From: a virus
Length of the DNA stretch: 57,203 nt
Strand: one strand, 5' to 3'
IMG/VR virus record: IMGVR_UViG_3300033153_006620
Span: 1-57,203 of that record
Shown: positions 13,517 through 57,203 of the stretch, one piece after another
Layout: each line of letters begins with the position of its first letter
Position numbering within the stretch: the stretch's first letter is position 1
Notes under the pieces: generated by a model
What the model saw: the letters and a program-made list of their open reading frames with translations, nothing else
What the model was told of the DNA's origin: nothing
The model's database searches: none
Position numbers and translations under genes: made by a program

Positions 13517-13517
13517 C

Positions 13518-13548: not shown

Positions 13549-13632
13549 GATAATTTGAGAAGTGGCGGAATTGGGGTGGAATCGGGGTTTTTTAGTGAAA
13601 AATAAATGCCGGATAATTAGGTTTTGGAATGG

Positions 13633-13656: not shown

Positions 13657-13685
13657 CAGGTCTTTTCGGTTTAGGAGGTGAAAAT

Positions 13686-16176: not shown

Positions 16177-16529
16177 TCGTATTTACCTACTGATAAAGAT
16201 TTAAGATTAAATTTTTTAACAATATTTCTTCTCATTATTTTCGCTTGTTTGCTGGCCAGAGAACTTTCACAGGAATCAATAGGAATGGACTTTCCTGTAG
16301 GGATACCGCCGTGAAGCCATGTACCATTATTCATTCTGCTAATAAATTCTTTTTGCTTTCTTACGTATGCTTTGAAATTCAGGGAATTAATAACCTTTTT
16401 CATCGATAAAGCGGTTATATTCATTTGTTTTGTGAGTTTATTAAAACATTTAACTGTAATTTCAACTCTCCTCGCAAAGCGTTTTACAGGGCTTTCTAGT
16501 GAGTGATATGTGTTTTCAGTTTCTAGCAC
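16155..16529 (-). CDS. Hypothetical protein
   Basis: GTG start right after AGGAGAGGG; overlaps the radical-SAM start. Confidence 0.5.
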   Translation of the reverse strand: MLETENTYHSLESPVKRFARRVEITVKCFNKLTKQMNITALSMKKVINSLNFKAYVRKQKEFISRMNNGTWLHGGIPTGKSIPIDSCESSLASKQAKIMRRNIVKKFNLKSLSVGKYECNPVKK

Positions 16530-17834
16530 TCACCCTCTCCTAACTAATTCATGATACAACGTTTTACTAGTCCAGTTATTAACAATAAGCTCAAAATCCG
16601 GTATTCTTTCTTTATAGTAAATAGATTTTGTATTGAGCCAATTATCAAGATACACCTGGGTATGAGCTACTGATTGCATTATCATATCCACATCTACATC
16701 AACTAACTTTCCCTTTTTCCATTTATAGTCTGTGATTTTGAAATGAGGTTCAAGCAATCCAATGGCTGTCATATCCCTATTCATCCTAATAAAATTCTGA
16801 TAGCACTCTTCAACATTAGGCTTTGTTTCTGCCATCATATCACCTGGAACCCACTCGGATAAGTCGCCGATTCTTTCCCCCTTTTTGTTCACAATGATTT
16901 TTTCCGTTCTTGCAAAATGTTGAGGCATTGAATTTAATATGTAATACATACCATCACTTAATAATCCGGTATCGTATTTAGTTCTTAAATTACCTATCCT
17001 CATCATGCTGTCAGGGTCTCTTGCTGGATTAGCCTCTAAACGTACGCCACATTCTTTTATACGTGCTTGCACTTCCTCATCTTCAATGTACTCCATGTCG
17101 GGTAAGACTCTTATAAACACAACAACATACCGACCCCTCTCACTGGGAGAAACTCTTAGCATCCTAAAATGAGGTTGCAAAGCATCTATGATTTTTTCTA
17201 AACAAAAGTCTTCTTTTTGCTTTGGCGTCCAATTTCCTTCTTTGGCAAATACTTTACAACTCGAATCATTACTTGATATAGGACCATCCAGAATTAAATA
17301 TTTCTCAGTCAATGCGGCAAGTTTTTTTGCCCACAAATAAGGCTCTGCACCGTATAGCAACGCGTCTTTATAAAAATGATGAATGACAGATCCACAGTAG
17401 ACAACATCAAATTTATTATAAAAGGCTCCACAATATTTTAATAAGCAATCATTAGCCTTCTTGAGTCCTTCATAATCCAGATTATTAAAATATTCCCATG
17501 ATTTGTCAATGCTAATGTCTCGCATTTCACCATGAATAAATTTGATATTATCAATGTTATGATATTTTCTTACATCCTCTGAAAATTGATGATATTCCGG
17601 GGCCACCTCATACCCCACTACTTTATCAAACAAATGCCTATACCCAAAGCACATCAAACCTTTGTTTGAGCCTATATCAAGTAATGTTTCACCACCCTGC
17701 AATAATTCTGGCATAGTCTTTTTTGCAAGCTCAAATCTATTTACGGATTCACTTCCATAAGGCTTAAGAGTTTCTATGTTATAATGTTGATTCCCTGGGT
17801 ATGTTAATTCTACCTCTCTTTGTGCTAGGCTCAT
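16530..17834 (-). CDS. Class I SAM-dependent methyltransferase with a large C-terminal domain of unknown function
   Basis: Motif I LLDIGSNKGLMCFG and acidic post-I VVGYEV. Confidence 0.65.
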   Translation of the reverse strand: MSLAQREVELTYPGNQHYNIETLKPYGSESVNRFELAKKTMPELLQGGETLLDIGSNKGLMCFGYRHLFDKVVGYEVAPEYHQFSEDVRKYHNIDNIKFIHGEMRDISIDKSWEYFNNLDYEGLKKANDCLLKYCGAFYNKFDVVYCGSVIHHFYKDALLYGAEPYLWAKKLAALTEKYLILDGPISSNDSSCKVFAKEGNWTPKQKEDFCLEKIIDALQPHFRMLRVSPSERGRYVVVFIRVLPDMEYIEDEEVQARIKECGVRLEANPARDPDSMMRIGNLRTKYDTGLLSDGMYYILNSMPQHFARTEKIIVNKKGERIGDLSEWVPGDMMAETKPNVEECYQNFIRMNRDMTAIGLLEPHFKITDYKWKKGKLVDVDVDMIMQSVAHTQVYLDNWLNTKSIYYKERIPDFELIVNNWTSKTLYHELVRRG

Positions 17835-18553
17835 GCTTTCCTTTCTGGTATTTCAATTACCGGTTTTTTCTGTTTAAATAAAAGCTGTGAATGAACGATC
17901 CTTATAGGACGGTCTCCATTTATCTTTCTAAATAATGCCAAATCTTCCCTATGTATTCTATGGGCAGTATCCCTCGATCTCTCCCTTACTATAACACCGC
18001 CTCTATGTTCCGTATTTGTTGCGTCTGAAAACGACCATTTCTCAATCCCATATTTCTGGACAAATCTCAATTGGTGTTCTAAATCACCTATGTATAAATT
18101 GTACCTCCAATCCACAGGACATTCTAGATAAGTCTCTGTAGTCATGATAAAAGAATATAACATAAACCCGGCAGCTATTGACCTTTTCCGGACTTCCCGG
18201 CCTGAATAATATTGATTAATCATAAGCATGTGACCGTCTTGATATCCCCTTAGATGGTCCTCTAGCCATGCGGGATTAGGAAATGTCATGTCTTGGTGAA
18301 TATACGCCATGTATTTAGTTTTAACCTTTAACGCCCCTATGTGGAAAGCTTCGAATACTCCCACCCGTTCTTTTAAATAAATGGTATCGATTCCGCGCCC
18401 ACGTAAATATTCTAATGTTTCGGGATTAGAGAAATTATCAACAACTAATAATTTGTAAGGATAATTCGTTTTTTCGAGAGAATTTAAACAATTCACAGTG
18501 TCATCCAACCCATTATAAGTAACCATTACAATTGTGATATCTTTATTTTCCAT
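17831..18553 (-). CDS. Family-2 glycosyltransferase
   Basis: ITIVMVTYNG..CLNSL...LLVVDNFSNPET N-terminal GT2 signature. Confidence 0.7.
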   Translation of the reverse strand: MENKDITIVMVTYNGLDDTVNCLNSLEKTNYPYKLLVVDNFSNPETLEYLRGRGIDTIYLKERVGVFEAFHIGALKVKTKYMAYIHQDMTFPNPAWLEDHLRGYQDGHMLMINQYYSGREVRKRSIAAGFMLYSFIMTTETYLECPVDWRYNLYIGDLEHQLRFVQKYGIEKWSFSDATNTEHRGGVIVRERSRDTAHRIHREDLALFRKINGDRPIRIVHSQLLFKQKKPVIEIPERKA

Positions 18554-18566
18554 AAATTAATCTGCC

Positions 18567-19121
18567 TTATTTTTTTAAGAATACGGTTATAGATCCGATC
18601 GTATCGATTCTTTTTATGTCCTGTCTTGTTAATAATTCCGCAACCATATATTTGTTCACAGACCACTCATTATGGGTGCTATCATGCAATAGAATATGCC
18701 CTCCATTTTCAATTTTCGGAAACCAAGATTCAAAATCATTTTTCACACCTTTATATGAATGGTCCGCGTCTATGAATAGAAAATCTATGCTTTTATCATC
18801 GAATAAATTGGCTGATTCGGATGTATTTTTTTTATACACATCAATATTATGTTTCTGTGCTAAAATATTTTTAACATCTTTGTAATAATGCGGTTCATCT
18901 TTAAATAAGTCTTTGTAATGCGATTTCGTTCCACATTCTATTTTATCGATATCTTCAAATATATCAAACGTAGATACCTTGGCTGCTATTTCTGATAGAA
19001 CCCAAGCCCCTCCCCCGAAATAAGTTCCAAGCTCAACAGCATGTTTTTTTTTCGTCGCGTATTTTTTTAAACAAGCCACATCCCGAGATCCAAGAAGCTT
19101 TTTTGGTGCAGGTTTAATCAT
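18567..19121 (-). CDS. Class I SAM-dependent methyltransferase (small O-methyltransferase type)
   Basis: VELGTYFGGGAWVLS motif I and FLFIDADHSY..GGHILLHD. Confidence 0.7.
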   Translation of the reverse strand: MIKPAPKKLLGSRDVACLKKYATKKKHAVELGTYFGGGAWVLSEIAAKVSTFDIFEDIDKIECGTKSHYKDLFKDEPHYYKDVKNILAQKHNIDVYKKNTSESANLFDDKSIDFLFIDADHSYKGVKNDFESWFPKIENGGHILLHDSTHNEWSVNKYMVAELLTRQDIKRIDTIGSITVFLKK

Positions 19122-19179
19122 TATTCACCGGAGAACGTGGTTTGCCTTTCATTGGCGGTTGCATAGGTAATGTCATTTG

Positions 19180-19812
19180 TCATTCCCTCACGTAAATCTC
19201 ATTAATATCCAAATCAATTATTTTAACATACCCGTTATCATTCATAAGCTTTTCAATGGGGAATGTTTTAAAGTTGTTTTCGATGTCAAATACTTCGATA
19301 TCGTATGTACAGAAACCATTAGCCTTTGAGAAAGCTTCTAATAGTGGATATTCTGCACCCTCTACATCAATACTCATATAGTCTATATGACACATTTTGG
19401 CCTCATACAACGCATCGTATAGAGGGACCATTTGAACTTTAGTGGTTTCTATTTGTGACGGAGCAATGTGTTTATCCATACGCTCTTTGTGCTTGTCTTC
19501 GATATAATCTTCTACACCTGACCATCCAATCAATCCACCGCTAACAGATGTAAAATTAACCATAGCTTTCTTGTCACCTATAGCATAATTAAGACATTTA
19601 CAATCCCGGTTTTTTGTTAGCTGCTTGTATGACTCTGGATGAGGTTCTATACATAAACCAGTCCATCCCATTTCACGCTCGAAATAAAGGCTGTTAGAGT
19701 GTAGCAAGCCATCGAGAGCGCCGAATTCGACAAATACCCCGTCTTGTTTGCCTTTGAATAGGTTTTCTGATAGCCATTTATCCTGGTTGTGTTCGCTTGA
19801 GTATTTATTCAT
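19180..19812 (-). CDS. FkbM-family methyltransferase
   Basis: VFVEFGALDG..GLCIEPHPESYKQLTKN..IDYMSIDVEGAEYPLL pattern. Confidence 0.7.
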   Translation of the reverse strand: MNKYSSEHNQDKWLSENLFKGKQDGVFVEFGALDGLLHSNSLYFEREMGWTGLCIEPHPESYKQLTKNRDCKCLNYAIGDKKAMVNFTSVSGGLIGWSGVEDYIEDKHKERMDKHIAPSQIETTKVQMVPLYDALYEAKMCHIDYMSIDVEGAEYPLLEAFSKANGFCTYDIEVFDIENNFKTFPIEKLMNDNGYVKIIDLDINEIYVRE

Positions 19813-20323
19813 TATTTTCCTTTTCTAGCCAGTTCATGATATCACCCAAATAGTCAGTATGCATTATAATACCGTCTTTGCGTTGGTTCTGATTCCATTG
19901 TTCGTATTTTTTAAAATAGAATTTAAACATAGCTTTTATTAATTGATCTTCGCGCTTTTCCATATCAATTGAGCCATGCAATATTACTGCTTTATTATCT
20001 GGAAAAACGTGCTCTAAATGTTCCTTTACCTTGTTATGCTCCCTATTACAAACGTTCGGCATTGTCAAAACGATAATATCACCTTTTTTCAAATTGAGTT
20101 TGCTTATCGATTGTATTTGTGGTACGCCTAGCCATTCCCCTAGAAAATCATAGAGTTTTTGAGCTTCGGGCTTAGTGAGTTGTACAGAATCATCACAACG
20201 ATAATCCTTATCTTCAACAAATTCACTTGGTCCCGATCTTAGGTGTAATTCATTTTCTTCAATGAAAAACATTAATGAATCCCCATCATTCTGTTTTATC
20301 ACTTTTATTGGTTTGTCAGTCAT
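19805..20323 (-). CDS. Hypothetical protein (start moved to ATG 20323)
   Basis: AAGGAACATAAAA precedes ATG 20323. Confidence 0.55.
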   Translation of the reverse strand: MTDKPIKVIKQNDGDSLMFFIEENELHLRSGPSEFVEDKDYRCDDSVQLTKPEAQKLYDFLGEWLGVPQIQSISKLNLKKGDIIVLTMPNVCNREHNKVKEHLEHVFPDNKAVILHGSIDMEKREDQLIKAMFKFYFKKYEQWNQNQRKDGIIMHTDYLGDIMNWLEKENNE

Positions 20324-20470
20324 TTTTATGTTCCTTACCTTTGCATATATTCCGATCTTTGTTGCACCCATGGCATGGACATTCCCCTGAATTAATCAGC
20401 GCCATAACTAGATGCCCACGCAAAGTACAATCTTTAGGTATATATCCTTGACTAATAGCCATTTTCAGCA

Positions 20471-21862
20471 TTATATCATCCATTTTTTCACAATCTCACT
20501 TTCCCGAACTGAAACCGGCAAATCTTTTAATTCAATAACTTTAACACCTTTCCACGCTTTTTCATGTCCTTCGGCGGTATGAAAATTATCAGCATTAGGT
20601 AATTTATCCCATTTCTCCCTTTTCCATTCAACCAAATCAACATGCCCATAAGCGTCCTTTTCAGCTTCATAAATATTTTCAATCTTTTGGAATAGTGTTT
20701 TTTCGTCTTCCCTAACATAAGTAAAATGATGGAATCTAAAATCATTGCATCTCAATACCCCCTGTATACCACATCCTCGGTGCCCTTTAAAGCTGTTTGA
20801 TTGCAACCTATAAAGCACGATAGGAGCTAATGATTCAGGCGGTGATATCCTATAGAAAGGTGATTTTATGTAAGTGTGCATAAAACAGGAATAAGCATTG
20901 GCTTTCTGATTTTCATTAGCAAAATGTATTATTCCTTTTAAATCTTTTCCAGGCCAAACCTCATCGGTATCGAAGAAAAGACATAATTTAGCGTCAAAGT
21001 TTTTTATTATATAATCCAGGCCGAAAAGATATTGCTTTAATTGATTCTGAGATGTGTAATCTAGATTGACTATTTTATTCTCATTGTCATGCGATTTAGC
21101 CCATTTTTCAATTATTGGCTTGACATCATTACCCCACTCCCCGCACCAAGACAAATCTGAATGCACAAATACAATCTTTTCGACATGAGGATATATGCCT
21201 TCAATAGCCGGGATTATAAACTCTTTTCCCCGCCACACCTTGCATAATGCCACAACTTTTTCCATTTTTGCTCCCCATTTTTTCTGAAAATATGCTTTGT
21301 TGGTATTCCAATAGAATCCGCCCTGGTTTTTTGCTTCGTTTAAATGAGTTAATTTGCACCGGTTATCAGTTACGAAATACTTATCATGTCCGTATTTTTC
21401 TAGCATTTGCCTACAAAAATCATCGTCTTCAAATCCACTACCGATAAATCCTTCATCGAATCGTAATTCGGATTTTCGGAAAGCTATACACGCGGTAGGG
21501 ATTTTCGTTGAAGCTATTAAGTCAACATTTAAATCATAGTTTTCCACCATTGTATAAGCGCATTTACCGTTTTTATTCATTAGCCGGGCAGATGATATTA
21601 TTACATTTTCATCGGTTAATAAAGCCCGGACCAAATCGATATCCCACCCCCAATAGAACCCGGTCATATCATCATCCATCATTATAACGATGTCTGAAGT
21701 GGCCCTGGCAAGCCCTTCGTTACGATTTTCAGAAGCACTGCCATCTATCCCGGTGAAAATTATCTGGCCTTCAGATACGCGGGTTAACGCTACGTCATTA
21801 ACCTGATTTTGAACTTCAGATAAATGTTTGCATGATGGAATTATGATGTCAATTTTAATCAT
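20471..21862 (-). CDS. Two-domain glycosyltransferase (N-terminal GT2 with DDD; second GT-A-like half)
   Basis: IDIIIPS..GIDGSASENRNEG..IVIMMDDDM; the second half has LCLFFDTDEVW (DXD-like). Confidence 0.65.
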   Translation of the reverse strand: MIKIDIIIPSCKHLSEVQNQVNDVALTRVSEGQIIFTGIDGSASENRNEGLARATSDIVIMMDDDMTGFYWGWDIDLVRALLTDENVIISSARLMNKNGKCAYTMVENYDLNVDLIASTKIPTACIAFRKSELRFDEGFIGSGFEDDDFCRQMLEKYGHDKYFVTDNRCKLTHLNEAKNQGGFYWNTNKAYFQKKWGAKMEKVVALCKVWRGKEFIIPAIEGIYPHVEKIVFVHSDLSWCGEWGNDVKPIIEKWAKSHDNENKIVNLDYTSQNQLKQYLFGLDYIIKNFDAKLCLFFDTDEVWPGKDLKGIIHFANENQKANAYSCFMHTYIKSPFYRISPPESLAPIVLYRLQSNSFKGHRGCGIQGVLRCNDFRFHHFTYVREDEKTLFQKIENIYEAEKDAYGHVDLVEWKREKWDKLPNADNFHTAEGHEKAWKGVKVIELKDLPVSVRESEIVKKWMI

Positions 21863-22236
21863 TTTAAAAATTCTTTCCAGTTGCTATTCTGCAATATATG
21901 AAAATACGATCCGTCAACGAACCCCTTATAAAATTCATCTTCCGTACATTTTACATTTATCCGGTACATGCCAGATTTAAAAGCCGATAAAAAATGTAGC
22001 GGCGGTTTTTTTATAAAAAGAGAACTACTAGGCGAACAATAATAAAATGAGTGATCTTCGCCATTGCGCGTGTAGTCGTACCCACGTCCGTCAAACTCTA
22101 CAATTTGTTTTAAAAAATAAATGTGATACGTTATAGCACAATCGCTGCCGTAAGACGAACATCCCTCGGGATTCATCAAAAGCATATAAGGCCTTATTTT
22201 ATGACCGTCTTTTGTTTTTAGTGATAATTCTTTCAT
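21859..22236 (-). CDS. Hypothetical protein
   Basis: 4-nt overlaps with both flanking glycosyltransferase genes. Confidence 0.6.
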   Translation of the reverse strand: MKELSLKTKDGHKIRPYMLLMNPEGCSSYGSDCAITYHIYFLKQIVEFDGRGYDYTRNGEDHSFYYCSPSSSLFIKKPPLHFLSAFKSGMYRINVKCTEDEFYKGFVDGSYFHILQNSNWKEFLK

Positions 22237-23015
22237 CTTTTCAGCTTCAAATAAAGTTCATTCTCAATAAAACTTGATGCTTCAATACCGTGCAATTCTT
22301 TAATTTTCAGAAGCCCTTTTTTAGTAGTCTCAAGGTCAAATTTTCCATTATCCCGGTGATGCACATAAACGGAGGTATCAACAAAGGGATGAAGTTTATT
22401 TTTCGCGGCCCTTATGATCCATTCTGTTAAGCAAATATCTTCCGGCAAATCCTCGAATTCCCCAACAAAATCCCACATTACACGGTGTATTAAAAAGCAG
22501 AAACTTGATATTTTCATAGGAGCCACTTTTTTAGTGTACTCCCTGGTGACTTCTGATTGAATCTCTGCAACGGACCTTATATCATTGACTACTTTGTATT
22601 CCTCATATGATTTTAAAGCCTGGTCGGAGTTAGATGAACATGTCAGAGGGCCTATGCATGATGCCATAGGCTTTGTCTTTATCCCTTCAAATAAATTCAC
22701 ATTCCACATCGGGGAAACTATTGTGTCATCATGGAGTACTATGACCAATTGAAGCTCATTTTCTTTAACTTTCCGGGTTTTCATCATACCGGCATTAACC
22801 GATAAAGCAAAACTAAGCTTTTCTTTTGAAAGAATATAACGGGTTTTCTGAAAATAATTATTCCAAAAGTAACCTTTACGGATTCCAGAGTGCCCGACTA
22901 CAATAATTTCATAATCTCCGCCGGTATTTTCTCTTACGGATTTTAAGCATAAATCAAGATTAGTCTGGTTGGTGGCTACGATTATAATAGAATATTTAGG
23001 TTTCAATTTTCTCAC
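22233..23015 (-). CDS. Family-2 glycosyltransferase
   Basis: YSIIIVATNQ..CLKSV..YEIIVVGH and VLHDD (DXD). Confidence 0.7.
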   Translation of the reverse strand: MRKLKPKYSIIIVATNQTNLDLCLKSVRENTGGDYEIIVVGHSGIRKGYFWNNYFQKTRYILSKEKLSFALSVNAGMMKTRKVKENELQLVIVLHDDTIVSPMWNVNLFEGIKTKPMASCIGPLTCSSNSDQALKSYEEYKVVNDIRSVAEIQSEVTREYTKKVAPMKISSFCFLIHRVMWDFVGEFEDLPEDICLTEWIIRAAKNKLHPFVDTSVYVHHRDNGKFDLETTKKGLLKIKELHGIEASSFIENELYLKLKR

Positions 23016-41266: not shown

Positions 41267-42325
41267 CTAATTTAAATTTAACATTTTTTCTTTTGCTTTA
41301 TCCAGAGCATCACCAAAGCCATATATATCAACCGATTCTTCCACTTCTGAGTCATTTTGAACAGTAGTAGTTTTCGTTGATTTCCCCTCTTCAGAATCAG
41401 CCTTTAGGATTTTCTCAAGAGGCGCTTTTAGTTCTTCAATGTATGATAAAATTTTCTTTGTTTTTGTAATTATATCGGATGATATTTTTTCATTTATAGA
41501 TTCGGGTTGACCTATAATTAATTCTACATTGTAATCCTTTTTGAATTCCTTAGCTTGCTCAAGCTTAGATTCTTTGTCTTCATCATCTCGTATGTATATT
41601 TTGCATAATGATTTAGTATTTAGTTCAATCCCTTCAATACTCTTATACCGTTGAATACTCTCATTCTTTTCGATATATTCAAGAGTCTTGTTACCGAACA
41701 CGTCTTTAAAAGATGGAATTTGACCAGAGTTTTTGTTGCTTGGCACTGATGTTAAACTGTACTCCAGCAGTGTTATCTTATCCCAAATCCAGCCATTCTT
41801 ATCTATACCGAAAGTGTCTCTTTCCTCGGGTGATGGTCTGCGAACATCTCCATATTTAGCGGTAAACCCAATGGATCCCTTAGTCATTCCACCGGTAGAT
41901 GCTATTTTAAAGAACGAATCGGACACGCCAGTATCGTCAATTTCTTTATCATAAAACAATACCCATGCATCAATGGAATTGGTTTCTTTGTTGAAAAATG
42001 TTTTTATAGCTTTCCCAACTGGGAATTTTCTACCATTATGAAATCCCAAAATAACAGGGTTACCTTTAAAATCTTTAAGATCCACGCCTTTAGGGATTAT
42101 AACTTCATTGTCATGATCAACCGTGGTGTCCGTTAAGCGGTAATTTAATACACGTTTTTCCAGCCCATCATGAAATTTTAAGTCTACTTTATTACAAAGA
42201 GTTTTGCATTCACCGGGTTTCAGATTAACAATCGATGAAACCGCCTTCGTTTGCCTAATTACATTTTCATTGTCTTTTAATGTATTTATGAATTCTTCAG
42301 CTTTTTTTTCCAGTATCGTTAACAT
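41267..42325 (-). CDS. Prohead serine protease (HK97 type) with a long acidic C-terminal extension
   Basis: PVILGFHNGRKFPVGKA (His) and GSIGF (Ser) motifs; AGGAG 9 nt before ATG 42325. Confidence 0.65.
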   Translation of the reverse strand: MLTILEKKAEEFINTLKDNENVIRQTKAVSSIVNLKPGECKTLCNKVDLKFHDGLEKRVLNYRLTDTTVDHDNEVIIPKGVDLKDFKGNPVILGFHNGRKFPVGKAIKTFFNKETNSIDAWVLFYDKEIDDTGVSDSFFKIASTGGMTKGSIGFTAKYGDVRRPSPEERDTFGIDKNGWIWDKITLLEYSLTSVPSNKNSGQIPSFKDVFGNKTLEYIEKNESIQRYKSIEGIELNTKSLCKIYIRDDEDKESKLEQAKEFKKDYNVELIIGQPESINEKISSDIITKTKKILSYIEELKAPLEKILKADSEEGKSTKTTTVQNDSEVEESVDIYGFGDALDKAKEKMLNLN

Positions 42326-42686
42326 TAGGCTTTTCTCCTGGGTTTGATAGTTTTTCCATGAGTATACATAGATATTTCTTCTCATTTTCTGGGGTTGGGT
42401 TTTGTTGGAAATTGTTCAAAGCATTACATAAAGGATTATTTATAGATTCAGCCGCTTTGTTAATAATTTTCTTTCTGATAATAGCTCTTGATTGTAGAAA
42501 CCCTTTTGTTTCACATACTATACAAGTCTTCTTTAAGTGTGCATTGCCATGGCATTTTGGGCATTCTTCACTTTCTGTACTTCTTTTTGCAGTAGAAGTT
42601 TTAGGAACGACATCTTTGACACATTTGGAGACATCTTTTTTCCTGTGAATAGGCTTCTCTTTCCTAACTTTATTTATATCTAACAT
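42297..42686 (-). CDS. Small basic protein with a CxxC..CxxC zinc knuckle (start moved to ATG 42686)
   Basis: CPKCHGNAHLKKTCIVCETKG; AAAGGAGCCAAG precedes the ATG. Confidence 0.5.
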   Translation of the reverse strand: MLDINKVRKEKPIHRKKDVSKCVKDVVPKTSTAKRSTESEECPKCHGNAHLKKTCIVCETKGFLQSRAIIRKKIINKAAESINNPLCNALNNFQQNPTPENEKKYLCILMEKLSNPGEKPNVNDTGKKS

Positions 42687-42822
42687 CTTGGCTCCTTTGA
42701 TTGAAATACTGTTTTTTCTTTGTAGGTTTGAATTGATCACCCTTGGTAGCTTCAAAACCTTTTTTTATTATGTTTTTATCACGATCCTCCATGAGTTTTT
42801 TTAAATTAGTTTTTCCGCTCAT
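42670..42822 (-). CDS. Small basic hypothetical protein (50 aa)
   Basis: Its ATG overlaps the portal stop (ATGA). Confidence 0.4.
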   Translation of the reverse strand: MSGKTNLKKLMEDRDKNIIKKGFEATKGDQFKPTKKKQYFNQRSQDVRYK

Positions 42823-44954
42823 GATTTCACCGCTACTGTTAAGCATCTACAATTGATTACATTACCGGCAGCTCCCCCTGATTCCAAAGGATATTTAAGC
42901 CCCGTAAGCGGAAATGGTTGCCCTAATTTTACAATATGAGTATCTTCATTTTTATGATCAAAAGGGTCTACTCTGACAATTTCATCCTTAGCGGTAACCC
43001 ATTCATGCTTTTTAATCTTCTCCGCCCTCATGATTTTATCGCGGGTGGATGTTGCTATGGAACTGGTTTCGGTTCTCGCAACGGTCTTTGCGTGTCCAGA
43101 AGTTATGGTATCAAAAGCCTTATGTTCAGCCTTCTTAATTAATTTTGTAAGCTCTCGAACTGTTAAATCAGGATTATCAGTAATGATGGTAGAAATCTCA
43201 TTACCCATTATTTTGAAAGTAGTGTTGTTGATTCCCCGAAGATATTTCAACCGGTCCTTCATTATTGCTTTTTGAGCTGCGCCGGTAGGATCCCAATTAA
43301 CCAACTCCCCTAATTCAGTTCCCATTTTAACGGTCTGAAGATTTATACCTTCTATGTATATAGGCTCTGAGCTTAATGTTAACTCTTTGTTTTCCGGGCC
43401 AATAGGTATCATGTAGTCAGATAAAGCAGCCTTAGTGATCATCTTTTCACCCTTAGCTACTTTATCAGCTTGATTCAAAAACCGGTTCCTCTGTCCTGTC
43501 CAGAACTTTATAATCATCCTGGTGTAATTCTTTTCCGGTTTAGCCTGGGTTTGTTTTATGTATTCAACCCAAAACACATCCCGCTCATCCCGGTCCATGG
43601 ATTTGCGCTTAAACTGTTTCGGTTCGGTTTCCTTGGGTGGTTCCGGTGCAAGTTGTCCAACTATTTCACCAGTCCTAAGATTAACTCTAGCACCTTTAAC
43701 AAGTGGTTCCAATAGCCATGGCATATCTGCGATGTTAATCTTCAATCCTACGGTTTCATAGGCCGTTGCCGGGGGCACGCCATCTTGAATAAGAAAACGT
43801 GCAGTCTTAACCTTTCCCTCGGTATTCCTACGTAAAGCAGCTACTTTGGAAAGATCAAAGCCCCCTGTGAGATTTCGTTTGTCAAGGTAATTTATCCAAT
43901 CCGGGTTTAATCCACCATCCCAAATCTTATTAATCAAAGGAATCAATGTATCATGCCAAAGCAATTCTTTCATGACTTCAGCGGTGGAACGGTTAACATC
44001 ATCAACCATTCCCAGTTCCATTTTATTAACACCGTAATCCGCTATTACTTCAGTAAGTGTAAAGTTTTTCCCCTCGGTCATTTCCAAATCGGAAAGGCTT
44101 TTGGTTTCCATTTGTTCCAGCTTCATACCGCTATGCAATGCAAGTAGCTTGCCGGCATTAGTAGCCCCGGAAAACTTTTCTCTAATCTGGTTTTTAACAG
44201 ATTCGACCTGGGGGCCACCCATTCTTTTATCAGAAGTGATGATATTTCCAATAGATGCATTATTCTTAAAAAACTTTTGCTGTAATTCGCGGGAAGTAAT
44301 ATCCGTTTCAACACTCATTCTCAATGCTGAATACGGGGATATACCCTGCAACATATTATTTTTGTTGAAATTCCTAATCCTGATAACTTGAGAGGGGAGA
44401 AATTTTATAGATTTACGACTGTTAGGCATATATTCCCAGCCCGTAAACTCATTGTTACCGGTTACGATTGGTTCAACATGTTCATCACTGGCCACCCACA
44501 AATAATCAGGAACAATTCCCCGAACCAAATCAACAGGTTCATGGCTCAAATCAGTTGGCAGGATAAAAGCTTGTCCACCTGGAGTTCTAGATGTGGGTAG
44601 GCTAAGAAATAATATTATAGCTTCAAAAAAATCATCCCTATGCATCATAGGATTCGGTCTTTTCAACCTATCCAGTGCAGGATGTTCATAAATTATTTCG
44701 TCTTCTTTGCCTTCGGGCCATAGAATCGGAGTAAGAGTTTTGATGTTTCTTGTTAGTATGTTGGTACATGCATATACCCATGAATACAATTCATAGGGGC
44801 TACTTGCTATTTTTTGAGCGTCAGAAGTTGCACCCCATAACTGAGAGAAACTTTTCAGGAATGTGGGATCCAATTCGCCGGTAATCTGTTTCTCCATTAT
44901 ATCACCTTGGGCATTATACAGCGAAATATCTTTAGGTGCAACGGCATAGGTCAT
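42819..44954 (-). CDS. Portal protein fused to a Mu-F/SPP1-gp7-like head morphogenesis domain
   Basis: 711 aa, directly after the large terminase; C-terminal NVINCRCLTVAV motif typical of MuF-like domains. Confidence 0.75.
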   Translation of the reverse strand: MTYAVAPKDISLYNAQGDIMEKQITGELDPTFLKSFSQLWGATSDAQKIASSPYELYSWVYACTNILTRNIKTLTPILWPEGKEDEIIYEHPALDRLKRPNPMMHRDDFFEAIILFLSLPTSRTPGGQAFILPTDLSHEPVDLVRGIVPDYLWVASDEHVEPIVTGNNEFTGWEYMPNSRKSIKFLPSQVIRIRNFNKNNMLQGISPYSALRMSVETDITSRELQQKFFKNNASIGNIITSDKRMGGPQVESVKNQIREKFSGATNAGKLLALHSGMKLEQMETKSLSDLEMTEGKNFTLTEVIADYGVNKMELGMVDDVNRSTAEVMKELLWHDTLIPLINKIWDGGLNPDWINYLDKRNLTGGFDLSKVAALRRNTEGKVKTARFLIQDGVPPATAYETVGLKINIADMPWLLEPLVKGARVNLRTGEIVGQLAPEPPKETEPKQFKRKSMDRDERDVFWVEYIKQTQAKPEKNYTRMIIKFWTGQRNRFLNQADKVAKGEKMITKAALSDYMIPIGPENKELTLSSEPIYIEGINLQTVKMGTELGELVNWDPTGAAQKAIMKDRLKYLRGINNTTFKIMGNEISTIITDNPDLTVRELTKLIKKAEHKAFDTITSGHAKTVARTETSSIATSTRDKIMRAEKIKKHEWVTAKDEIVRVDPFDHKNEDTHIVKLGQPFPLTGLKYPLESGGAAGNVINCRCLTVAVKS

Positions 44955-46405
44955 ACGATTATAACCCCCGGCATCAAACCCACCTTGTCATAGATAGCAC
45001 CCCAGACAGCGTATTTAAAAGCGTCACCGTCATCGGGGGAACGGTGTAATTCTTTTTTGATTAAGTCTTTTCCCCATAGATGTATTGTTTTTTCGCCTTT
45101 AATATCGTACCGGTAAACACCTATATCATCTCTCAATTCCTGAGATTCTATACCGCCGATTTTCCCGGCTTCCATCAAAACCTTTACTTCCCATCCCACG
45201 CGGGAATTCATGTTGAAATAGATTTGTTTCTGATTTAAATCTGGATGTTCTAATTGAAAATCATCGTCATCGGCTGAACCACCCGAAAAAGCTTGGATTT
45301 CGTAACCATCTTCGACAAGATGATCGTAAGCTCCGGCACCCAATCCTACAACATCAAGAAATACTCTATGATGGGGAATTTCCCAGTCAATAATTAATTC
45401 TTTAGTTTTTTGCTCGACCTGTGGAACGCTGGTTTTTGGAAATTTCTCGGTGTGAATTATATTAAATCCCTTTTCGTAATTACCTTCTAATACATACCAT
45501 GCCGAGGCATCAGGTCCGAATCTTCCCACATCCACACCCATGGCTCGGTAGGTTTCATCTGATTGAATGTTTCCAGTATTCTCTTCCGGGATATATTCGG
45601 GTTTTATAAATTCAATTAATTTCTCACATGCCCAAATAGTTTCCCAGGAAATTAACTGTTGAATGTCGTCTTCAGCGTCCCATGAACCCTGGACTCTTTT
45701 TCGGTATAGATTGGGAGCGCGTTCTTTGAGAGTTTCAAGAGCGGCCCGATAGGCATCTGTTAAAAAAGGGTTGTCATAAGGGAGGGCGGGCAAATAAAAA
45801 TACATATCAGGCAAAGTGTTATTCGTATACGGTGTATAAAATATGGTTTTGATCCATTTTTGAGTCGGATTAGCAGAATAAAGATGCAAGATAGGCGGCA
45901 TTGCTCCCTTAACAACCCACCGCCCAACACGGTCAATAAGTTTTAAATCCAAAGCTTCTGATAGTTCCTGACATTCCTCTCTCGCTGCGCCATTAACTTC
46001 TAATCCATCGAAATTAGTCAAATCTGGATATTGCTTAAGATTTTCACTCATGAAAATAATTTGAGATCCGTTTGTAGCCGTGGCTTCCATTCTCGTCCTA
46101 TTGTACCTAGTGGGATGAAAGAAAGGTTTTGGGCAAAATTTCCAAAAGGATGGAATAGTATTTCTTTCCAGTACAGGCCTATCTTTTCTTATAATAACCC
46201 ATCTCGAGCCGGGATAAACTTTACAAAGAATGGAGAATAAAATTATAATGGTAACGGTTTTCATCCCTCCTACAGCTCCCCCGTAGAATAGGTGTGTGTA
46301 TAAGCCTGACAATGCTGCCTCGATGAATACGATTTGTTTGCCAACCGCTTCAACATAAATTTGATCCTTTTCAACTTCATTAGCTTTTATTAAGGTCTCA
46401 ATCAT
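44951..46405 (-). CDS. Terminase large subunit
   Basis: Walker-A-like GGAVGGMKT and a following acidic motif; size; position between the small terminase and the portal. Confidence 0.8.
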   Translation of the reverse strand: MIETLIKANEVEKDQIYVEAVGKQIVFIEAALSGLYTHLFYGGAVGGMKTVTIIILFSILCKVYPGSRWVIIRKDRPVLERNTIPSFWKFCPKPFFHPTRYNRTRMEATATNGSQIIFMSENLKQYPDLTNFDGLEVNGAAREECQELSEALDLKLIDRVGRWVVKGAMPPILHLYSANPTQKWIKTIFYTPYTNNTLPDMYFYLPALPYDNPFLTDAYRAALETLKERAPNLYRKRVQGSWDAEDDIQQLISWETIWACEKLIEFIKPEYIPEENTGNIQSDETYRAMGVDVGRFGPDASAWYVLEGNYEKGFNIIHTEKFPKTSVPQVEQKTKELIIDWEIPHHRVFLDVVGLGAGAYDHLVEDGYEIQAFSGGSADDDDFQLEHPDLNQKQIYFNMNSRVGWEVKVLMEAGKIGGIESQELRDDIGVYRYDIKGEKTIHLWGKDLIKKELHRSPDDGDAFKYAVWGAIYDKVGLMPGVIIV

Positions 46406-46862
46406 TTATATCGCCTGAACCAAAATCGATTACAAAATCTCCAATTTTTAGCTTTTGTTTCTCCTCATCATTAAGTTCGGCGTTATAATTTATCTGCCCT
46501 TCAACATATCCCCGCTTTTTGCCTTTGCATTTCAAGTAAAAATAAATGGAGGATAAATCGTCTCTTTCAATACTCTTGAATAATTTGTCTTCTACGAAAT
46601 CCAAATTTATTTCTACAACGTCACGACAAGCCTTTTTAAACTCTTTGTCACTTTTCTCGTATTCGTAGTAAGTAGAGCGGCCACATTTGGCAGCTTTGCA
46701 AGCATTCGTGATATTACCACGATTTTCAACCATAGCCTCGATTAAGATTTTTTTATTCTGTTCGGTTTCGGGAGAATCTTCTTTTTTTATAGTGTCCGGA
46801 TTTGTTGGTAGATTGTTAATAGATTCGTCGTTTCCCGGTACTTCATCGACATTTTCTTCCAT
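46398..46862 (-). CDS. Terminase small subunit
   Basis: HTH segment GNITNACKAAKCGRSTYYEYEK; overlaps the terL start; first gene of the late operon. Confidence 0.6.
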   Translation of the reverse strand: MEENVDEVPGNDESINNLPTNPDTIKKEDSPETEQNKKILIEAMVENRGNITNACKAAKCGRSTYYEYEKSDKEFKKACRDVVEINLDFVEDKLFKSIERDDLSSIYFYLKCKGKKRGYVEGQINYNAELNDEEKQKLKIGDFVIDFGSGDIND

Positions 46863-46935
46863 CTTATTAACATATTACCAACAATCCCCCTTTGGCAACA
46901 AAATAAACCTAAACTTTCGCTAGAATTATGCAACT

Positions 46936-46956
46936 ATTGTTTATAAATTGTTTATA
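46936..46956. repeat. Two copies of ATTGTTTATA, 11 bp apart, in the divergent control region and overlapping a TATATT -10-like box
   Basis: 46936-46945 and 46947-46956 are identical; flanked by CAACT on both sides. Confidence 0.75.
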
Positions 46957-46968
46957 TTTTGTACAACT

Positions 46969-47178
46969 ATGGAAATGTTTAGTAATTGCAGCGGTGAATG
47001 CAAAGATTGTTTGATTAACTACACCGGCAGATGTTTAGCCGGGCATGGTGACGATGATTTTACAAAAATCACAGCTTCCGGTGTAAGGCTTATTTTAAAA
47101 AATGAACATATAGAAGAGTGGAGAAAAGAGAAATTAAGGGAGGTAGCTAATGACTTGTATAGTAGGACTGACTCATAA
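46969..47178 (+). CDS. Small Cys-rich protein (start moved to ATG 46969)
   Basis: MEMFSNCSGECKDCLINYTGRCLAGH; first gene of the only plus-strand block. Confidence 0.5.
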   Translation: MEMFSNCSGECKDCLINYTGRCLAGHGDDDFTKITASGVRLILKNEHIEEWRKEKLREVANDLYSRTDS

Positions 47179-47689
47179 AAATAAAGTGTACATTGGAGGT
47201 GATTCCGCCGGAGTTGCTGGGTATAATTTACAGGTAAGGAGTGATGAAAAGGTATTCAAAAAAGATAATATGATATTCGGGTTCACCTCATCTTTCCGAA
47301 TGGGGCAAATAATAAGATATTGCCTAAAAATTCCAGAACATTTCCCCTCGAAAAATGACTATGAATATTTGTGTTCAACTTTTATTGATGCTTTAATTGG
47401 CTGTTTTAAAGAAAAAGGATATGCAACTGTAAAAGATGGCAGCGTCAGTGGTAGAATATTCTTATTAGGATATAAAGGCAATCTTTATAAAATAGAGAGT
47501 GATTTTCAAGTTGGAAAAGTTTTTGATTGTTTCGACGCTACTGGATACGGTCAAAATTTCGCTTTAGGCGCTTTGAGTGCAATTGCAACGGGAAAAATAG
47601 AACCGGAAAAATGCATAGAAGCAGCTCTACAAGCAGCGGAAAAATTTAGCGCGGGCGTAAGTTCACCATTTAAAATTGTGACATTATAA
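47150..47689 (+). CDS. Proteasome-beta/HslV-like N-terminal-nucleophile hydrolase
   Basis: MTCIVGLTHKNKVYIGGDSAG has Thr2 directly after Met, as in HslV (MTTIV..I.GD). GYGQNFALGAL lies near the C-terminal third. GGGAGG sits 6 nt before the ATG. Confidence 0.6.
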   Translation: MTCIVGLTHKNKVYIGGDSAGVAGYNLQVRSDEKVFKKDNMIFGFTSSFRMGQIIRYCLKIPEHFPSKNDYEYLCSTFIDALIGCFKEKGYATVKDGSVSGRIFLLGYKGNLYKIESDFQVGKVFDCFDATGYGQNFALGALSAIATGKIEPEKCIEAALQAAEKFSAGVSSPFKIVTL

Positions 47690-47752
47690 TTTTTTAATGA
47701 AAAATATTAAGAACTCATCTGATAACGTTGAAAATGACCTTTTAGGTAGATA

Positions 47753-47941
47753 ATGCTCAAAATTAAAATGTTACATTTGATGACTCAATTCACAGTAGAA
47801 TACAATTCAATAGCATACTCCAGTCGATTGATGGCTGAGAAATATGTAGCGATAATGGCATTAACTATAAGCATGAATAAAGCAATCCAAAAAATCATTA
47901 AGGAGACTGCAATTGAACAAACCAAAAAGAATAAGAACTAA
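47753..47941 (+). CDS. Hypothetical protein
   Basis: Plus-strand ORF within the island. Confidence 0.45.
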   Translation: MLKIKMLHLMTQFTVEYNSIAYSSRLMAEKYVAIMALTISMNKAIQKIIKETAIEQTKKNKN

Positions 47942-48128
47942 ATACGGGCGGTCAATATGCCTCTCCGATATTGTCGATGAAGCATTAGATATTAGAGCAA
48001 AAAAACAAGGTGGCTCCAGGTCTGCAATTGTTGAAATGATGCTTAGAGGGGAATTGCGGAATGAAATCAGGGTTATTGAGCTAAGACCGAATTCCGAAGC
48101 GAATAACGAAATCAAAAAGTCTTTTTGA
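47913..48128 (+). CDS. Ribbon-helix-helix (CopG-type) DNA-binding protein
   Basis: TTG start 7 nt after AAGGAG; GRSICLSDIVDEALDIRAKKQGGSRSAIVEMML fits strand-helix-helix. Confidence 0.55.
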   Translation: MNKPKRIRTKYGRSICLSDIVDEALDIRAKKQGGSRSAIVEMMLRGELRNEIRVIELRPNSEANNEIKKSF

Positions 48129-48224
48129 AATCTTCATAACAAATCCACAGCTCGAGCATACACAGGCATTTGGCGATATCACCAAAATCTCTTCTGAACA
48201 CTTTAAACATTTCATCATGATTAT

Positions 48225-48253
48225 AGTATAAGTTCGTTTTGATTATTTGTCAA
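48225..48253 (-). promoter_or_regulatory. Sigma70-type promoter TTGACA-N17-TATACT firing into the 3' end of the convergent plus-strand island
   Basis: -35 at 48248-48253 and -10 at 48225-48230. The -35 is one arm of the inverted repeat TTGTCAA-N10-TTGACAA (48247-48270). Confidence 0.5.
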
Positions 48254-48282: not shown

Positions 48283-48765
48283 TTAACGAAAATTCGCGCC
48301 GATAACAATAACCTTACCATTGGAGAATGTTGAATCAGACCTTACCAATTCGTCATCAATAAACAAAAATCCTTTAATAGTCTGTATTTGCCTTACGATA
48401 TCATTATAATCAGGCTCTACAAGTAGCCTGGCATATCTTACTCTAGAAATATTTAAACTGTCTTTTATGAACACAGTCTTGTCCATAGCGCATTCATCAA
48501 AATATGAGACACCAATGCTATCTTCCGTTATCCAGTTTACATTACACGCCCCGGTATCCGATTCAACAACGTACCTAACTTTATGATATTTCCATTCAGG
48601 TTTGATTTTAACGGTGTCTATTACAGTATTCGTCACAGTGTCGGTTATTGTATTGGACACGGTTAAGGTGTCATTCCCCGCTTGACATCCTGTTGGATTT
48701 GTACAGGCCATTAATGTTAACAACAAGCCTATTGCAAGCGCTATTGATAATTTTATAGTTTTCAT
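48283..48765 (-). CDS. Lipoprotein (start moved to ATG 48765)
   Basis: Signal peptide MKTIKLSIALAIGLLLTLMAC with lipobox L-M-A-C; AAGGAAG before the ATG. Confidence 0.65.
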   Translation of the reverse strand: MKTIKLSIALAIGLLLTLMACTNPTGCQAGNDTLTVSNTITDTVTNTVIDTVKIKPEWKYHKVRYVVESDTGACNVNWITEDSIGVSYFDECAMDKTVFIKDSLNISRVRYARLLVEPDYNDIVRQIQTIKGFLFIDDELVRSDSTFSNGKVIVIGANFR

Positions 48766-48778
48766 TTTACTTCCTTTG

Positions 48779-49237
48779 TTAATTATTAAATTTATCAGCC
48801 ACTTCTTTAAAACTCTCAATATCCCGACAAACGATCGTTTCAAATTTCTCCGCAAACTCCAATTGCCCCGTTCGCTGTTTCCCGGAGCCTGTTTTTAATT
48901 CGACTCCCAGAGCGGTATTGAGGCCGTTTTTCTGAGCATACAGAATTAAGTCGGGGACACCTAACAAATACTCTGAGATAGCTTTTCTTACGTTCTGCAA
49001 CCATCCATATAACATTTGATTCTTTTGCAGTGCAGACCCCAGGAAAGGCGCATAAATGAATTTCAGCATTTCATCCGGAATATGCAGAAACGAGATACCG
49101 TTTTCATTGCAATATTGTTCAGCCAATTCCTGTAATTCATCATGACTTGATTTAGACTTTTTCGGGGAACTTTTTACTGCAATATACCGGGGGAACTCTA
49201 AGCCCTCATCACCCGGTAATATTTTCATTCTGACCAT
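48779..49237 (-). CDS. VRR-NUC (PD-(D/E)xK) nuclease domain protein
   Basis: GVPDLILY..LGVELKTGSGKQRTGQLEF pattern of VRR-NUC. Confidence 0.65.
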   Translation of the reverse strand: MVRMKILPGDEGLEFPRYIAVKSSPKKSKSSHDELQELAEQYCNENGISFLHIPDEMLKFIYAPFLGSALQKNQMLYGWLQNVRKAISEYLLGVPDLILYAQKNGLNTALGVELKTGSGKQRTGQLEFAEKFETIVCRDIESFKEVADKFNN

Positions 49238-51620: not shown

Positions 51621-52811
51621 TCACCCCTTTATCACAGCCAAGGGAGACAATTCAACGACAATTTCCACTAAGTCACTTTGATTTTCCATAACAGTAAATA
51701 TGTCTTTGTACGCCCCCGGAGCCTCATCCAAATTGGACTTATGCCGTATTCCATGAATTATACCTTGAGAATCTAAGATATGTTTTTCGTCTTCAAAATT
51801 AAGATTTTTAATAGCTTTGGTTCTACTCATTTTTCTACCGGCTCCGTGAGAACATGAATTAAATGATTCAGGGTTGCCTCTGCCTTTTGTTATATAGCTT
51901 TTAGTCCCTTGTGAGCCCGGTATTATTCCCAATTCCCCTTCACGAGCGGATGTAGCGCCTTTGCGATGTACAATAACATTCTTCCCAAAATGATTTTCAT
52001 ATTGTGCAAAATTATGATGTATGTTTATTTCCTTGTCAAAATCACAATCCAATATATCCGTAAAAGATTCTTTTATTTTATCCAACATTAATAGCCTGTT
52101 CGCATATGCAAATTCGAGAGCGTAATTCATGGCCTCTAAATATTCTTTAGATTCAGAGGTATCGATAGGGAGAAATGCAAGACCGTCATCACCTTTAAAA
52201 TCCGGTATATTCGAGAACCATTTTTTGCATAATTTCTGAGCTATTTTGTTGTATTCATTTGCTATTTTATAGCCAAAATTTCTTGAGCCAGAATGAACCA
52301 TTATCCATATAAACCCGTCAGATCCTCTCTGTATTTCGATAAAATGATTTCCGCCGCCCAACGTTCCCAATTGTTTCCGGGCCGATTTAATATTTTCATT
52401 GACTACTTTTATTAGTCCCGGATATCTTTCAAAACCCTTCCAGTATTGATCTTTTTTGTGGTGATTAAATCCTACCGGTATTTTCCCGCGAATACCGCCC
52501 TTGAATTCCGCAGATCCTCCCATTATTCCTTTAAGCTGCTCATTTGTTATTTCTGTCAGAGAGGTTTTCACGGCGCACATCCCACACCCGATATCCACAC
52601 CGACAGCGTTCGGGACTACTACATTTTCCGTAGCCATAACACCGCCTATTGGCATTCCATAACCCTGATGTGAGTCTGGCATGATAGCAATATGTCGAAA
52701 AACAAATGGAAGGTTGGCTAGATTTTTGGCTTGTTCTAAGGCCCCGGTTTCAATATCATTTAACCATAACTTTACGGGTAACTTTTCGGTATCTATGACA
52801 TATTCCATCAT
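51621..52811 (-). CDS. rtcB: RtcB-family RNA ligase (3'-phosphate/5'-hydroxyl)
   Basis: Full motif set: GVDIGCGM, GGGNHFIE, HSGSRNFG, HRKGAT, SCSHGAGR. GGAGG lies at the MMEY start; the exact start (52811 or 52808) is uncertain. Confidence 0.95.
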   Translation of the reverse strand: MMEYVIDTEKLPVKLWLNDIETGALEQAKNLANLPFVFRHIAIMPDSHQGYGMPIGGVMATENVVVPNAVGVDIGCGMCAVKTSLTEITNEQLKGIMGGSAEFKGGIRGKIPVGFNHHKKDQYWKGFERYPGLIKVVNENIKSARKQLGTLGGGNHFIEIQRGSDGFIWIMVHSGSRNFGYKIANEYNKIAQKLCKKWFSNIPDFKGDDGLAFLPIDTSESKEYLEAMNYALEFAYANRLLMLDKIKESFTDILDCDFDKEINIHHNFAQYENHFGKNVIVHRKGATSAREGELGIIPGSQGTKSYITKGRGNPESFNSCSHGAGRKMSRTKAIKNLNFEDEKHILDSQGIIHGIRHKSNLDEAPGAYKDIFTVMENQSDLVEIVVELSPLAVIKG

Positions 52812-52831
52812 ACCTCCATTTCTGATTTTTA

Positions 52832-52923
52832 CGGCAATCCCCAAAGGCATTCGTGCATGGCAGCCTAGACGGGGATTACCGCCGAAAATTATCAGACAGT
52901 TAATTGTTTGTTTGAGCCATGCA
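52832..52923 (-). promoter_or_regulatory. Structured 5' leader of rtcB with nested or competing inverted repeats
   Basis: 11-bp stem CGGTAATCCCC/GGGGATTGCCG (52881-52871 with 52842-52832, one G-U). Its loop carries GCCATGCA, complementary to TGCATGGC at 52923-52916. Confidence 0.5.
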
Positions 52924-56906: not shown

Positions 56907-57203
56907 TCAGCCTATTCTTTTATCGCAAATCGAAAGTAATATCTCTTTGTTTTCATCCCAAAATTTTAATGCGTTATAATCCATTTTTTCTATGCGAGAA
57001 TTCTTAAATTTTTTCCAGTTTTCAAAAGAATGAAATTCACATCCTATTTTCATATGTTCGTCAAATATGATAATATTCCAATGTAAGCCTAAAATTTGAA
57101 TGGGAGTTTCTTTTATAATTATTTTTTCGTCATTGGTCCCTCTCAAATCGGCCCCGCTCAAATCGGCCCCGCTCAAATCGGCCCCGCTCAAATCGGACCT
57201 GTT
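56907..57203 (-). CDS. Pentapeptide-repeat protein, C-terminal part (same gene as 1-408; 57090-57203 duplicates 1-114)
   Basis: ..GADLSGADLSGADLRG followed by an 80-aa non-repeat C-terminal domain; stop at 56907. Confidence 0.85.
   Translation of the reverse strand, partial: NRSDLSGADLSGADLSGADLRGTNDEKIIIKETPIQILGLHWNIIIFDEHMKIGCEFHSFENWKKFKNSRIEKMDYNALKFWDENKEILLSICDKRIG
57090..57203. repeat. Terminal direct repeat, identical to 1-114
   Basis: Base-for-base comparison. Confidence 0.95.

Follow-up and report, generated by a model that had tools for sequence, protein, structure and literature searches.

The gene at positions 47150-47689 (plus strand) of a 57,203-nt viral contig (IMG/VR record IMGVR_UViG_3300033153_006620, positions 1 to 57,203; this entire stretch of DNA is referred to below as the window) encodes a 179-aa protein that is, according to its predicted structure, an Ntn hydrolase of the proteasome-beta/HslV fold, an alpha-beta-beta-alpha sandwich with four flanking helices. 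The locus as a whole is best explained, with good confidence, as a standalone peptidase of the AAH clade (group I) encoded in a self-contained cassette. The first-pass annotation, made from the sequence alone, had described the product as a standalone hydrolase of the proteasome-beta/HslV type, a description that is now backed by a Pfam match, a PHROG family, an AlphaFold2 model and Foldseek searches.

The protein begins MTCIVGL...YIGGDSAG and contains the segment GYGQNFALGAL farther on. Residues 2-164 match the Pfam proteasome family (PF00227; MEROPS T1) with 26.4 bits against a gathering threshold of 22.4, and the PHROG family phrog_1040, “peptidase HslV family”, is matched with E=1.4e-20. 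In contrast, the HslV equivalog model of NCBIfam (NF003964) gives 11.9 bits against a cut-off of 137, and the NCBIfam models of archaeal and bacterial beta subunits also score far below their cut-offs. The AlphaFold2 model, built with 31 relatives (pLDDT 90.7, pTM 0.87), consists of a single domain without a propeptide or insertions, with helices at residues 49-57, 70-88 (H2), 135-145 and 152-166, and the chain ends after the last strand. Comparison of this model with the PDB using Foldseek yielded 1,150 matches at E<=1e-3; among the matches listed, 50 of 50 are BPH, HslV or 20S subunits, with TM-scores of 0.74-0.77 for BPH (the best), 0.65-0.68 for HslV and about 0.6 for 20S beta subunits. 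A profile of the family searched against PDB sequences retrieved the same order, with BPH first (E=1.5e-4, over the full length), followed by HslV (1.6e-3) and then an archaeal beta subunit.

The predicted catalytic residues are nearly invariant. Among 189 unique close relatives, Thr2 is found in all 186 that have a residue at this position, and Asp18, Lys34 and Gly44 are each present in 189/189; in a more diverse set of 148 representatives of 50%-identity clusters, Thr2 is retained in 146/147 (the exception has Ser), Lys34 in 149/149 and Asp18 in 147/149. In mature numbering, Thr2, Asp18 and Lys34 are Thr1, Asp17 and Lys33, the triad of the proteasome (PMC8665760); Gly44 occupies the oxyanion position. 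The start is exactly Met-Thr in 134 of the 148 representatives, and 180 of the 189 close relatives carry no N-terminal extension. The two outcomes named beforehand as grounds for abandoning the annotation, a non-Ntn fold and a Thr2 that is not conserved among homologs, were both examined, and the results are an Ntn fold and a threonine conserved in all or all but one of the members of each set that have a residue there. The earlier proposal that Thr2 becomes the nucleophile “exactly as in HslV” holds for the shared fold and for the threonine itself; a specific kinship with HslV does not follow, the equivalog model having failed and BPH being nearer.

The family to which this protein belongs is large. 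It comprises more than 3,700 matches in a protein set clustered at 90% identity and 7,818 clusters at 50% identity at E<=1e-3, of which 2,501 reach E<=1e-30, and at least 30 structural matches were detected among predicted viral structures. Relatives are encoded in 205 GenBank phage genomes, and the carriers include T5-like Epseptimavirus, Asteriusvirus-like jumbo phages, Geobacillus virus E3, Ochrobactrum phage OC and the archaeal virus PhiF1. A scan of GTDB representatives recovered relatives with 47-65% identity from Rhizobium, Sinorhizobium, Mesorhizobium and Ensifer; from Dactylosporangium, Frankia, Actinoplanes and Streptomyces; from Paenibacillus, Brevibacillus and Cytobacillus; and from Lutibacter, Melioribacteraceae, Dehalococcoidia and metagenome-assembled genomes of the CPR. 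Firmicutes prophages and metagenome-assembled genomes of the FCB group are among these carriers.

The idea that an ATPase-less proteasome homologue in a phage is a novelty had to be given up: three groups of such phage-borne homologues, PPH, AAH and CPH, were described in 2021 by Fuchs, Alva, Lupas et al., with thousands of phage and prophage genes catalogued by then (PMC8665760), and the family is annotated in PHROGs. The window gene is thus an additional member of a known, computationally described family. In the literature that we searched, phage proteasome homologues figure only in catalogues or annotations, with no experimental study of any of them; one paper on jumbo phages records HslV genes in the absence of HslU. 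We file the window protein as a probable AAH-type member on the basis of its architecture and of the distribution of its relatives, both of which match the description of AAH. Like AAH, the protein is about 180 aa long, has helices H1-H4 and lacks a propeptide, insertions and the C-terminal S12/H5, carries Thr1/Asp17/Lys33 and has no ATPase; both are distributed over alpha-proteobacteria, Actinobacteria, Firmicutes, Bacteroidetes-type genomes and many phages. The family recovered here is, however, far larger than the 240 nr90 AAH sequences reported (PMC8665760), and the window protein adds two substitutions of its own, C133Y and G102R.

Three other groups share some features with the window protein. 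BPH is the closest solved structure (5OVS/5OVT/5OVU) and shares with it a Thr-Cys N-terminus and the lack of a known unfoldase, but the two are only about 19% identical; the BPH loop reads GSG where the window protein has GYG, and BPH is a tetradecamer with an acidic cavity. Moreover, BPH has not been reported from phages (PMC8665760, Table 1). HslV (ClpQ) has the same fold, and Gram-negative HslV also exposes an N-terminal Thr through Met removal; PHROG and JGI label the family “HslV”. Nevertheless, the window protein fails the equivalog cut-off, is more distant from HslV in structure, and has no HslU either in cis or elsewhere in the genome. PPH, called “the first true viral member”, is likewise phage-borne and ATPase-less, and the T5-like proteins align to residues 1-124 with about 33% identity. 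However, PPH is about 140 aa long and devoid of helix H2 (PMC8665760), and the presence of H2 at residues 70-88 of the 179-aa window protein excludes it from that group.

The contig can be used to judge which genes are absent, since positions 57089-57203 repeat its first ~115 nt, which indicates a complete circular contig. As had been noted from the sequence, no unfoldase is encoded: the only Walker-A AAA+-like protein of the genome is a 253-aa IstB/DnaC/DnaA-type loader (482-1243, minus strand), and no HslU/ClpX-type motif was found in the complete circular genome. The other large proteins are glycosyltransferases, methyltransferases, radical-SAM, PAPS-reductase/DUF3440, RtcB, a DNA methylase, or structural proteins. 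For comparison, we collected 83 viral and 80 genomic related loci (163 in total), each covering 4-5 kb around the protease gene; none of the 83 viral loci encodes a protein with an HslU/ClpX-type P-loop (GP[TS]GxGKT) within 4 kb of the protease.

A suggestive regularity, which to our reading is a new observation, is that AAH genes of smaller phages tend to lie close to the genes for terminase, portal and head protease. Among clustered and annotated neighbors in viral loci, portal, terS, HNH, terL, HK97-type head maturation protease and major capsid protein (MCP) genes recur. Contexts were counted after collapsing near-identical ones, which left 71, and only BLAST-clustered neighbors were considered. 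Of the 46 contexts on contigs of at most 60 kb, 23 have a packaging or head gene within four genes of the protease, compared with 0/25 on larger contigs (Fisher p=3e-6), and the enrichment on the smaller contigs is also apparent against a deliberately generous 25% null (binomial p=2e-4), although these statistics ignore phylogeny and contig-end or assembly bias. Over all 71 contexts, a packaging or head gene was counted within four genes in 25 and directly adjacent in 16, all of them on contigs of at most 60 kb. The arrangements include terL-AAH-portal, portal-AAH-prohead protease-MCP and terS-HNH-AAH-terL-portal, the last of which is also found in Firmicutes prophages. The window protease, two genes away from terS on the opposite strand, fits this pattern of proximity to head genes.

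Two other contexts were observed. On viral contigs of 62-480 kb (L032, L039, L044, L052, L053, L057 and L066), a block consisting of a PheRS-alpha-like gene, an HD gene, AAH and the gene for NAD-dependent DNA ligase (LigA) is conserved. In one Rhizobium lineage (chromosomal contigs L097-L104), AAH and the gene of a 743-aa prolyl oligopeptidase (S9) lie two genes apart; the surroundings do not look phage-derived and include a luciferase-like monooxygenase and an SDR. Calls in the high-GC chromosomes of Actinobacteria, for which a naive ORF-calling procedure was used, are too noisy for the gene context there to be read.

In the window, nearly all genes of a greedy open reading frame (ORF) map are on the minus strand, and four ORFs of 69, 179, 62 and 71 aa form a plus-strand island at 46969-48128. 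The island, its neighborhood and the control region contain the following features (coding scores are log-odds of codon usage trained on 37 long minus-strand genes of the window):

46863..46968, no strand assigned: control region, the divergent intergenic stretch from terS to the island, with putative operator and promoter roles
46969..47178, plus strand: Cys-rich 69-aa ORF with the motif NCSGECKDCLINYTGRCLAGHGDDDF; coding score 0.22
47150..47689, plus strand: protease, 179 aa, with the Shine-Dalgarno sequence AAGGGAGG 6 nt upstream; coding score 0.23
47753..47941, plus strand: 62-aa ORF; coding score 0.09; an alternative ATG at 47780 would give 53 aa
47913..48128, plus strand: RHH-like 71-aa ORF with a TTG start and AAGGAG 7 nt before the TTG; coding score 0.07
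48081-48218, minus strand: 45-aa CxxC...CxxC ORF, behind the 48225-48253 promoter match; negative coding score
48225..48253, minus strand: sigma-70-like promoter match, TTGACA-17-TATACT, 11/12, a match to the consensus only

For all four island ORFs, the score is the best of the six frames. It is negative for the minus-strand ORFs that overlap the island (an antisense 84-aa ORF, -0.21, and the 45-aa ORF) and for all plus-strand ORFs elsewhere in the window, which look like antisense artefacts over plausible minus-strand genes. The GC and AT skews change sign exactly across 46.8-48.2 kb. Together, the coding scores and the skew identify 46969-48128 as the only plus-strand coding island of the window, so that the four ORFs and their isolation on this strand stand as originally read, as do their orientations. 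To the left, the island is divergent from terS (46398-46862) and terL, beyond which lie the genes for the portal, a probable prohead protease/scaffold, the MCP and the tape-measure protein; to the right, it is convergent with a lipoprotein-like gene (48283-48855; MKTIKLSIALAIGLLLTLMAC read from the sequence).

The control region contains the exact 10-mer ATTGTTTATA in tandem, at 46936-46945 and 46947-46956 (period 11), and a TATATT box at 46953-46958. These repeats over the box had been pointed out previously, and the search confirmed that the two copies are exact and the only ones in the window; a weak inverted partner of the repeats is present at 46865-46885. The sequence TATATTTT(G) closely resembles TAnnTTTG, the -7 motif of Bacteroidota, a resemblance that we regard as a lead only.

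The Cys-rich ORF starts ~10 nt past the TATATT box and has no Shine-Dalgarno sequence. It is a real gene: it was called as such in the source contig, and one relative shares 72% identity with it over the motif NCSGECKDCLIxYxGxCxxGHGDDDF, while Pfam, PHROG and phages yielded no match. The 62-aa ORF is only tentatively considered a gene; searches for it covered the profile libraries and the loci around related proteases, and in these no matching family and no relative were found. The 71-aa ORF is plausibly an RHH repressor, with the tandem 11-bp-spaced repeats as its operator. It matches the BrnA antitoxin with E=0.017, and its AlphaFold2 model, obtained from the single sequence (pLDDT 80), contains a strand at 14-16 and helices at 17-32 and 36-44 in a beta-alpha-alpha order; a Foldseek search with this model gave no significant fold match. 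In both pairs of overlapping genes, Cys-rich/protease (47150-47178) and 62-aa/RHH-like (47913-47941), the overlap is exactly 29 nt and the strong Shine-Dalgarno sequence of the downstream gene lies within the upstream ORF, an arrangement that suggests coupled translation. Shine-Dalgarno-like motifs precede 36% of the window genes against a background of 8%. The match at 48225-48253, the best promoter-like sequence of the region, is directed at the 3' end of the island on the strand opposite to the RHH-like ORF and could be the source of an antisense or convergent transcript.

The first-pass annotation also likened the island to an inserted moron and called the small Cys-rich and RHH proteins partners of the protease. 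The comparison with a moron is borne out by the opposite orientation alone: the GC content of the island (33-37%, against 37.5% for the genome) and its codon usage are native, and no terminator was found. No sibling genome came to light in the phage, IMG/VR and JGI collections, either when viral and metagenome contigs were scanned with terL or when phages were searched with the island by blastn. As for the partners, a search for their co-occurrence with the protease spoke against them. A conserved four-gene module was rejected, given that a BLASTP comparison with all ORFs of the 163 loci gave no match for any of the three small ORFs or for their flanking genes; terS and the lipoprotein-like gene, too, have no relative within 4-5 kb of the protease there. 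The candidacy of the Cys-rich ORF as a dedicated cofactor was likewise dismissed, its sole relative (P0123) being located beside unrelated small genes and a serine recombinase (resolvase). In two other phages, the gene just upstream of the protease is also Cys-rich, but unrelated. Judging from these sequence comparisons, the three small ORFs are lineage-specific neighbors and not conserved cofactors.

By analogy with HslV, BPH and the 20S beta subunits, the host methionine aminopeptidase would strip Met1 and expose Thr as the N-terminal nucleophile, and the subunits would, as in HslV, BPH and the 20S particle, form a double ring that encloses the active sites. The lack of an unfoldase would limit the substrates to peptides, unfolded chains or possibly a specific, loosely structured target. 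In the order of the cassette (tandem-repeat control region, Cys-rich ORF, protease, 62-aa ORF, RHH-like ORF), the RHH-like protein probably binds the repeats and thereby autoregulates the cassette.

Several observations weigh against the reading of a functional AAH-type peptidase in a self-contained cassette that accompanies the head genes. A sigma-70 scan detected no good plus-strand promoter at the TATATT box, and neither a terminator or stable hairpin (fold z-scores 0.26 and -0.60) nor an Rfam match was found at the convergent end. The 71-aa ORF scores 16.1 bits against RHH_1 (E=0.011), below the gathering threshold of 20.5, and is an orphan, with no homologue in a set of 5.8 billion proteins or in phage genomes. 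The enrichment near head genes carries the biases stated above and is not universal, because in large phages, including Geobacillus virus E3 and PhiF1, AAH is located among DNA-metabolism genes. Finally, two positions of the protease itself are aberrant. Position 133 (codon 47546-47548) is Tyr in the window protein only, among the 189 close and 148 diverse relatives; it is Cys in 184 of the 189 and, in the diverse set, Cys (116), Ser (17), Ala (7), Ile (3) or Val (2). At position 102 (codon 47453-47455), Arg is again found in the window protein only, in place of the Gly present in 142/148. That both C133Y and G102R are confined to the window copy is, as far as the compared sequences go, a second new observation; these substitutions could lower the activity or be tolerated, or could have arisen as errors of assembly. 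Position 133 belongs to the G-x-G loop and is equivalent to Ser129 of the proteasome, beside the nucleophile, the loop being GYG here, mostly GCG in the family and GSG in BPH, so that the unique Tyr133 and Arg102 could impair this copy. Each change could also stem from an assembly or sequencing error. A decaying or repurposed gene with impaired catalysis appears doubtful: the ORF has its full length without interruption, the triad and at least 20 other invariant residues are retained, codon usage is native, the Shine-Dalgarno sequence is strong, and other members of the family accept Ser, Ala, Ile or Val at position 133.

With regard to function, the reading that comes first, although only tentatively, is that of an accessory peptidase that works without an ATPase and is expressed together with the packaging and head genes. 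Further proposals were weighed. The least probable, and in our opinion very improbable, is that the protease recruits the HslU of the host, as suggested in the first-pass annotation, or another AAA+ unfoldase of the host, to form a hybrid ATP-dependent protease acting on folded host proteins. The fold is common to HslV and, the phage encoding no ATPase, any unfolding power would have to be supplied by the host; yet the HslV model is missed by a wide gap, the structure-based identity to HslV is 17-19%, BPH, which forms heptameric rings and has no known unfoldase (PMC5777263), is closest by both profile and fold, and no HslU-like gene recurs near any of the 163 related loci. In addition, close members of the family are numerous in Actinobacteria and occur in a Methanothermobacter virus, whereas for Actinobacteria and the archaeal groups no HslV is entered in Table 1 of the 2021 survey (PMC8665760). 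It is also unlikely that the enzyme serves host takeover or anti-defence by cutting a specific host regulator or immune protein. Consistent with such a role, the cassette forms an autonomous unit of opposite orientation with regulation of its own, very different phages have acquired members of the family by horizontal spread, and proteasome homologues can be highly substrate-specific, connectase being an example (PMC7980362). However, no recurrent association with known defence or anti-defence genes was seen, PADLOC returned no match for defence-system membership, many relatives reside inside late structural operons and not in early regions, and chromosomal copies that appear not to belong to phages exist in Actinobacteria (PMC8665760).

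Equally improbable is a direct part in virion assembly, in which the protease would process or remove proteins of the head, the scaffold or the packaging machinery, or fragments of these, or would itself be packaged as a minor head protein. What speaks for it is the position of the gene: near terS, HNH, terL, portal, prohead protease or MCP genes in half of the contexts on contigs of at most 60 kb, directly adjacent to such a gene in 14/46, with cases in which it separates terL from portal or portal from the prohead protease, and, in the window, two genes from terS. Against it, the window gene is on the strand opposite to the late operon, the large phages place the gene elsewhere, the enrichment is subject to the biases already mentioned, and the junction upstream of the terminase is a general hotspot for accessory genes. 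Furthermore, the phages with the gene in this position, and probably the window phage, already possess a canonical HK97-type prohead protease. In the window, this is a 372-aa protein next to the portal gene (41267-42385, minus strand), whose match to phrog_617 is confined to the protease portion, for which reason we regard it as a probable prohead protease/scaffold; the possibility that the 179-aa protein is itself the prohead protease was rejected in view of this match and of the S78-type protease carried by the head-module relatives, which thus retain the canonical enzyme. The broadest version, in which AAH homologues are a widespread accessory of packaging and head assembly in small and mid-sized tailed phages that needs no ATPase, and the window gene has been relocated to a divergent RHH-controlled cassette next to terS, seems to us slightly less probable still. 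Behind the accessory peptidase, which ranks first but weakly, a role in anti-defence or host takeover and an impaired copy are the alternatives that deserve consideration.

To our knowledge, no function has been established for any of the unfoldase-less proteasome homologues (BPH, AAH, PPH and Anbu). AAH-type genes are evidently disseminated by phages on a large scale, the clade alone comprising at least 7,800 clusters at 50% identity, and a role in infection, if found, would account for an accessory gene that many phages carry and might show the Ntn-threonine mechanism at work in a new way. By itself, the locus adds little, namely an intact, standalone and separately regulated copy in a novel phage lineage. 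The survey of related loci provides a testable lead, the preference of the gene in smaller phages for places next to terminase, portal and head-protease genes.

The nearest terminases, at about 25% identity, belong to phages of Bacteroidota, which makes any host assignment tentative. The portal gene (42819-44954, minus strand) encodes a fusion with a C-terminal Mu-F-like head-morphogenesis domain. A tandem array of the 15-bp unit CCCGCTCAAATCGGC (~19 + 4 copies, 92-97% identity) occupies positions 49-332 and 57138-57196, unbroken over the circular junction; adjoining the gene of the IstB/DnaC-like loader, it is a candidate for replication-origin iterons. A full-length RtcB RNA ligase (51621-52850, minus strand; Pfam E=1e-114) is encoded by this phage, which has no tRNA genes, and may repair RNA cut by host anticodon nucleases. 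A large block of modification-type genes at 11625-23015 (minus strand) comprises PAPS-reductase/DUF3440, GT2-TPR, radical SAM, a 434-aa methyltransferase and more GT2/glycosyltransferases; the nearest AAH-carrying contigs have comparable glycosyltransferase and methyltransferase genes 1-3 kb downstream of the protease.

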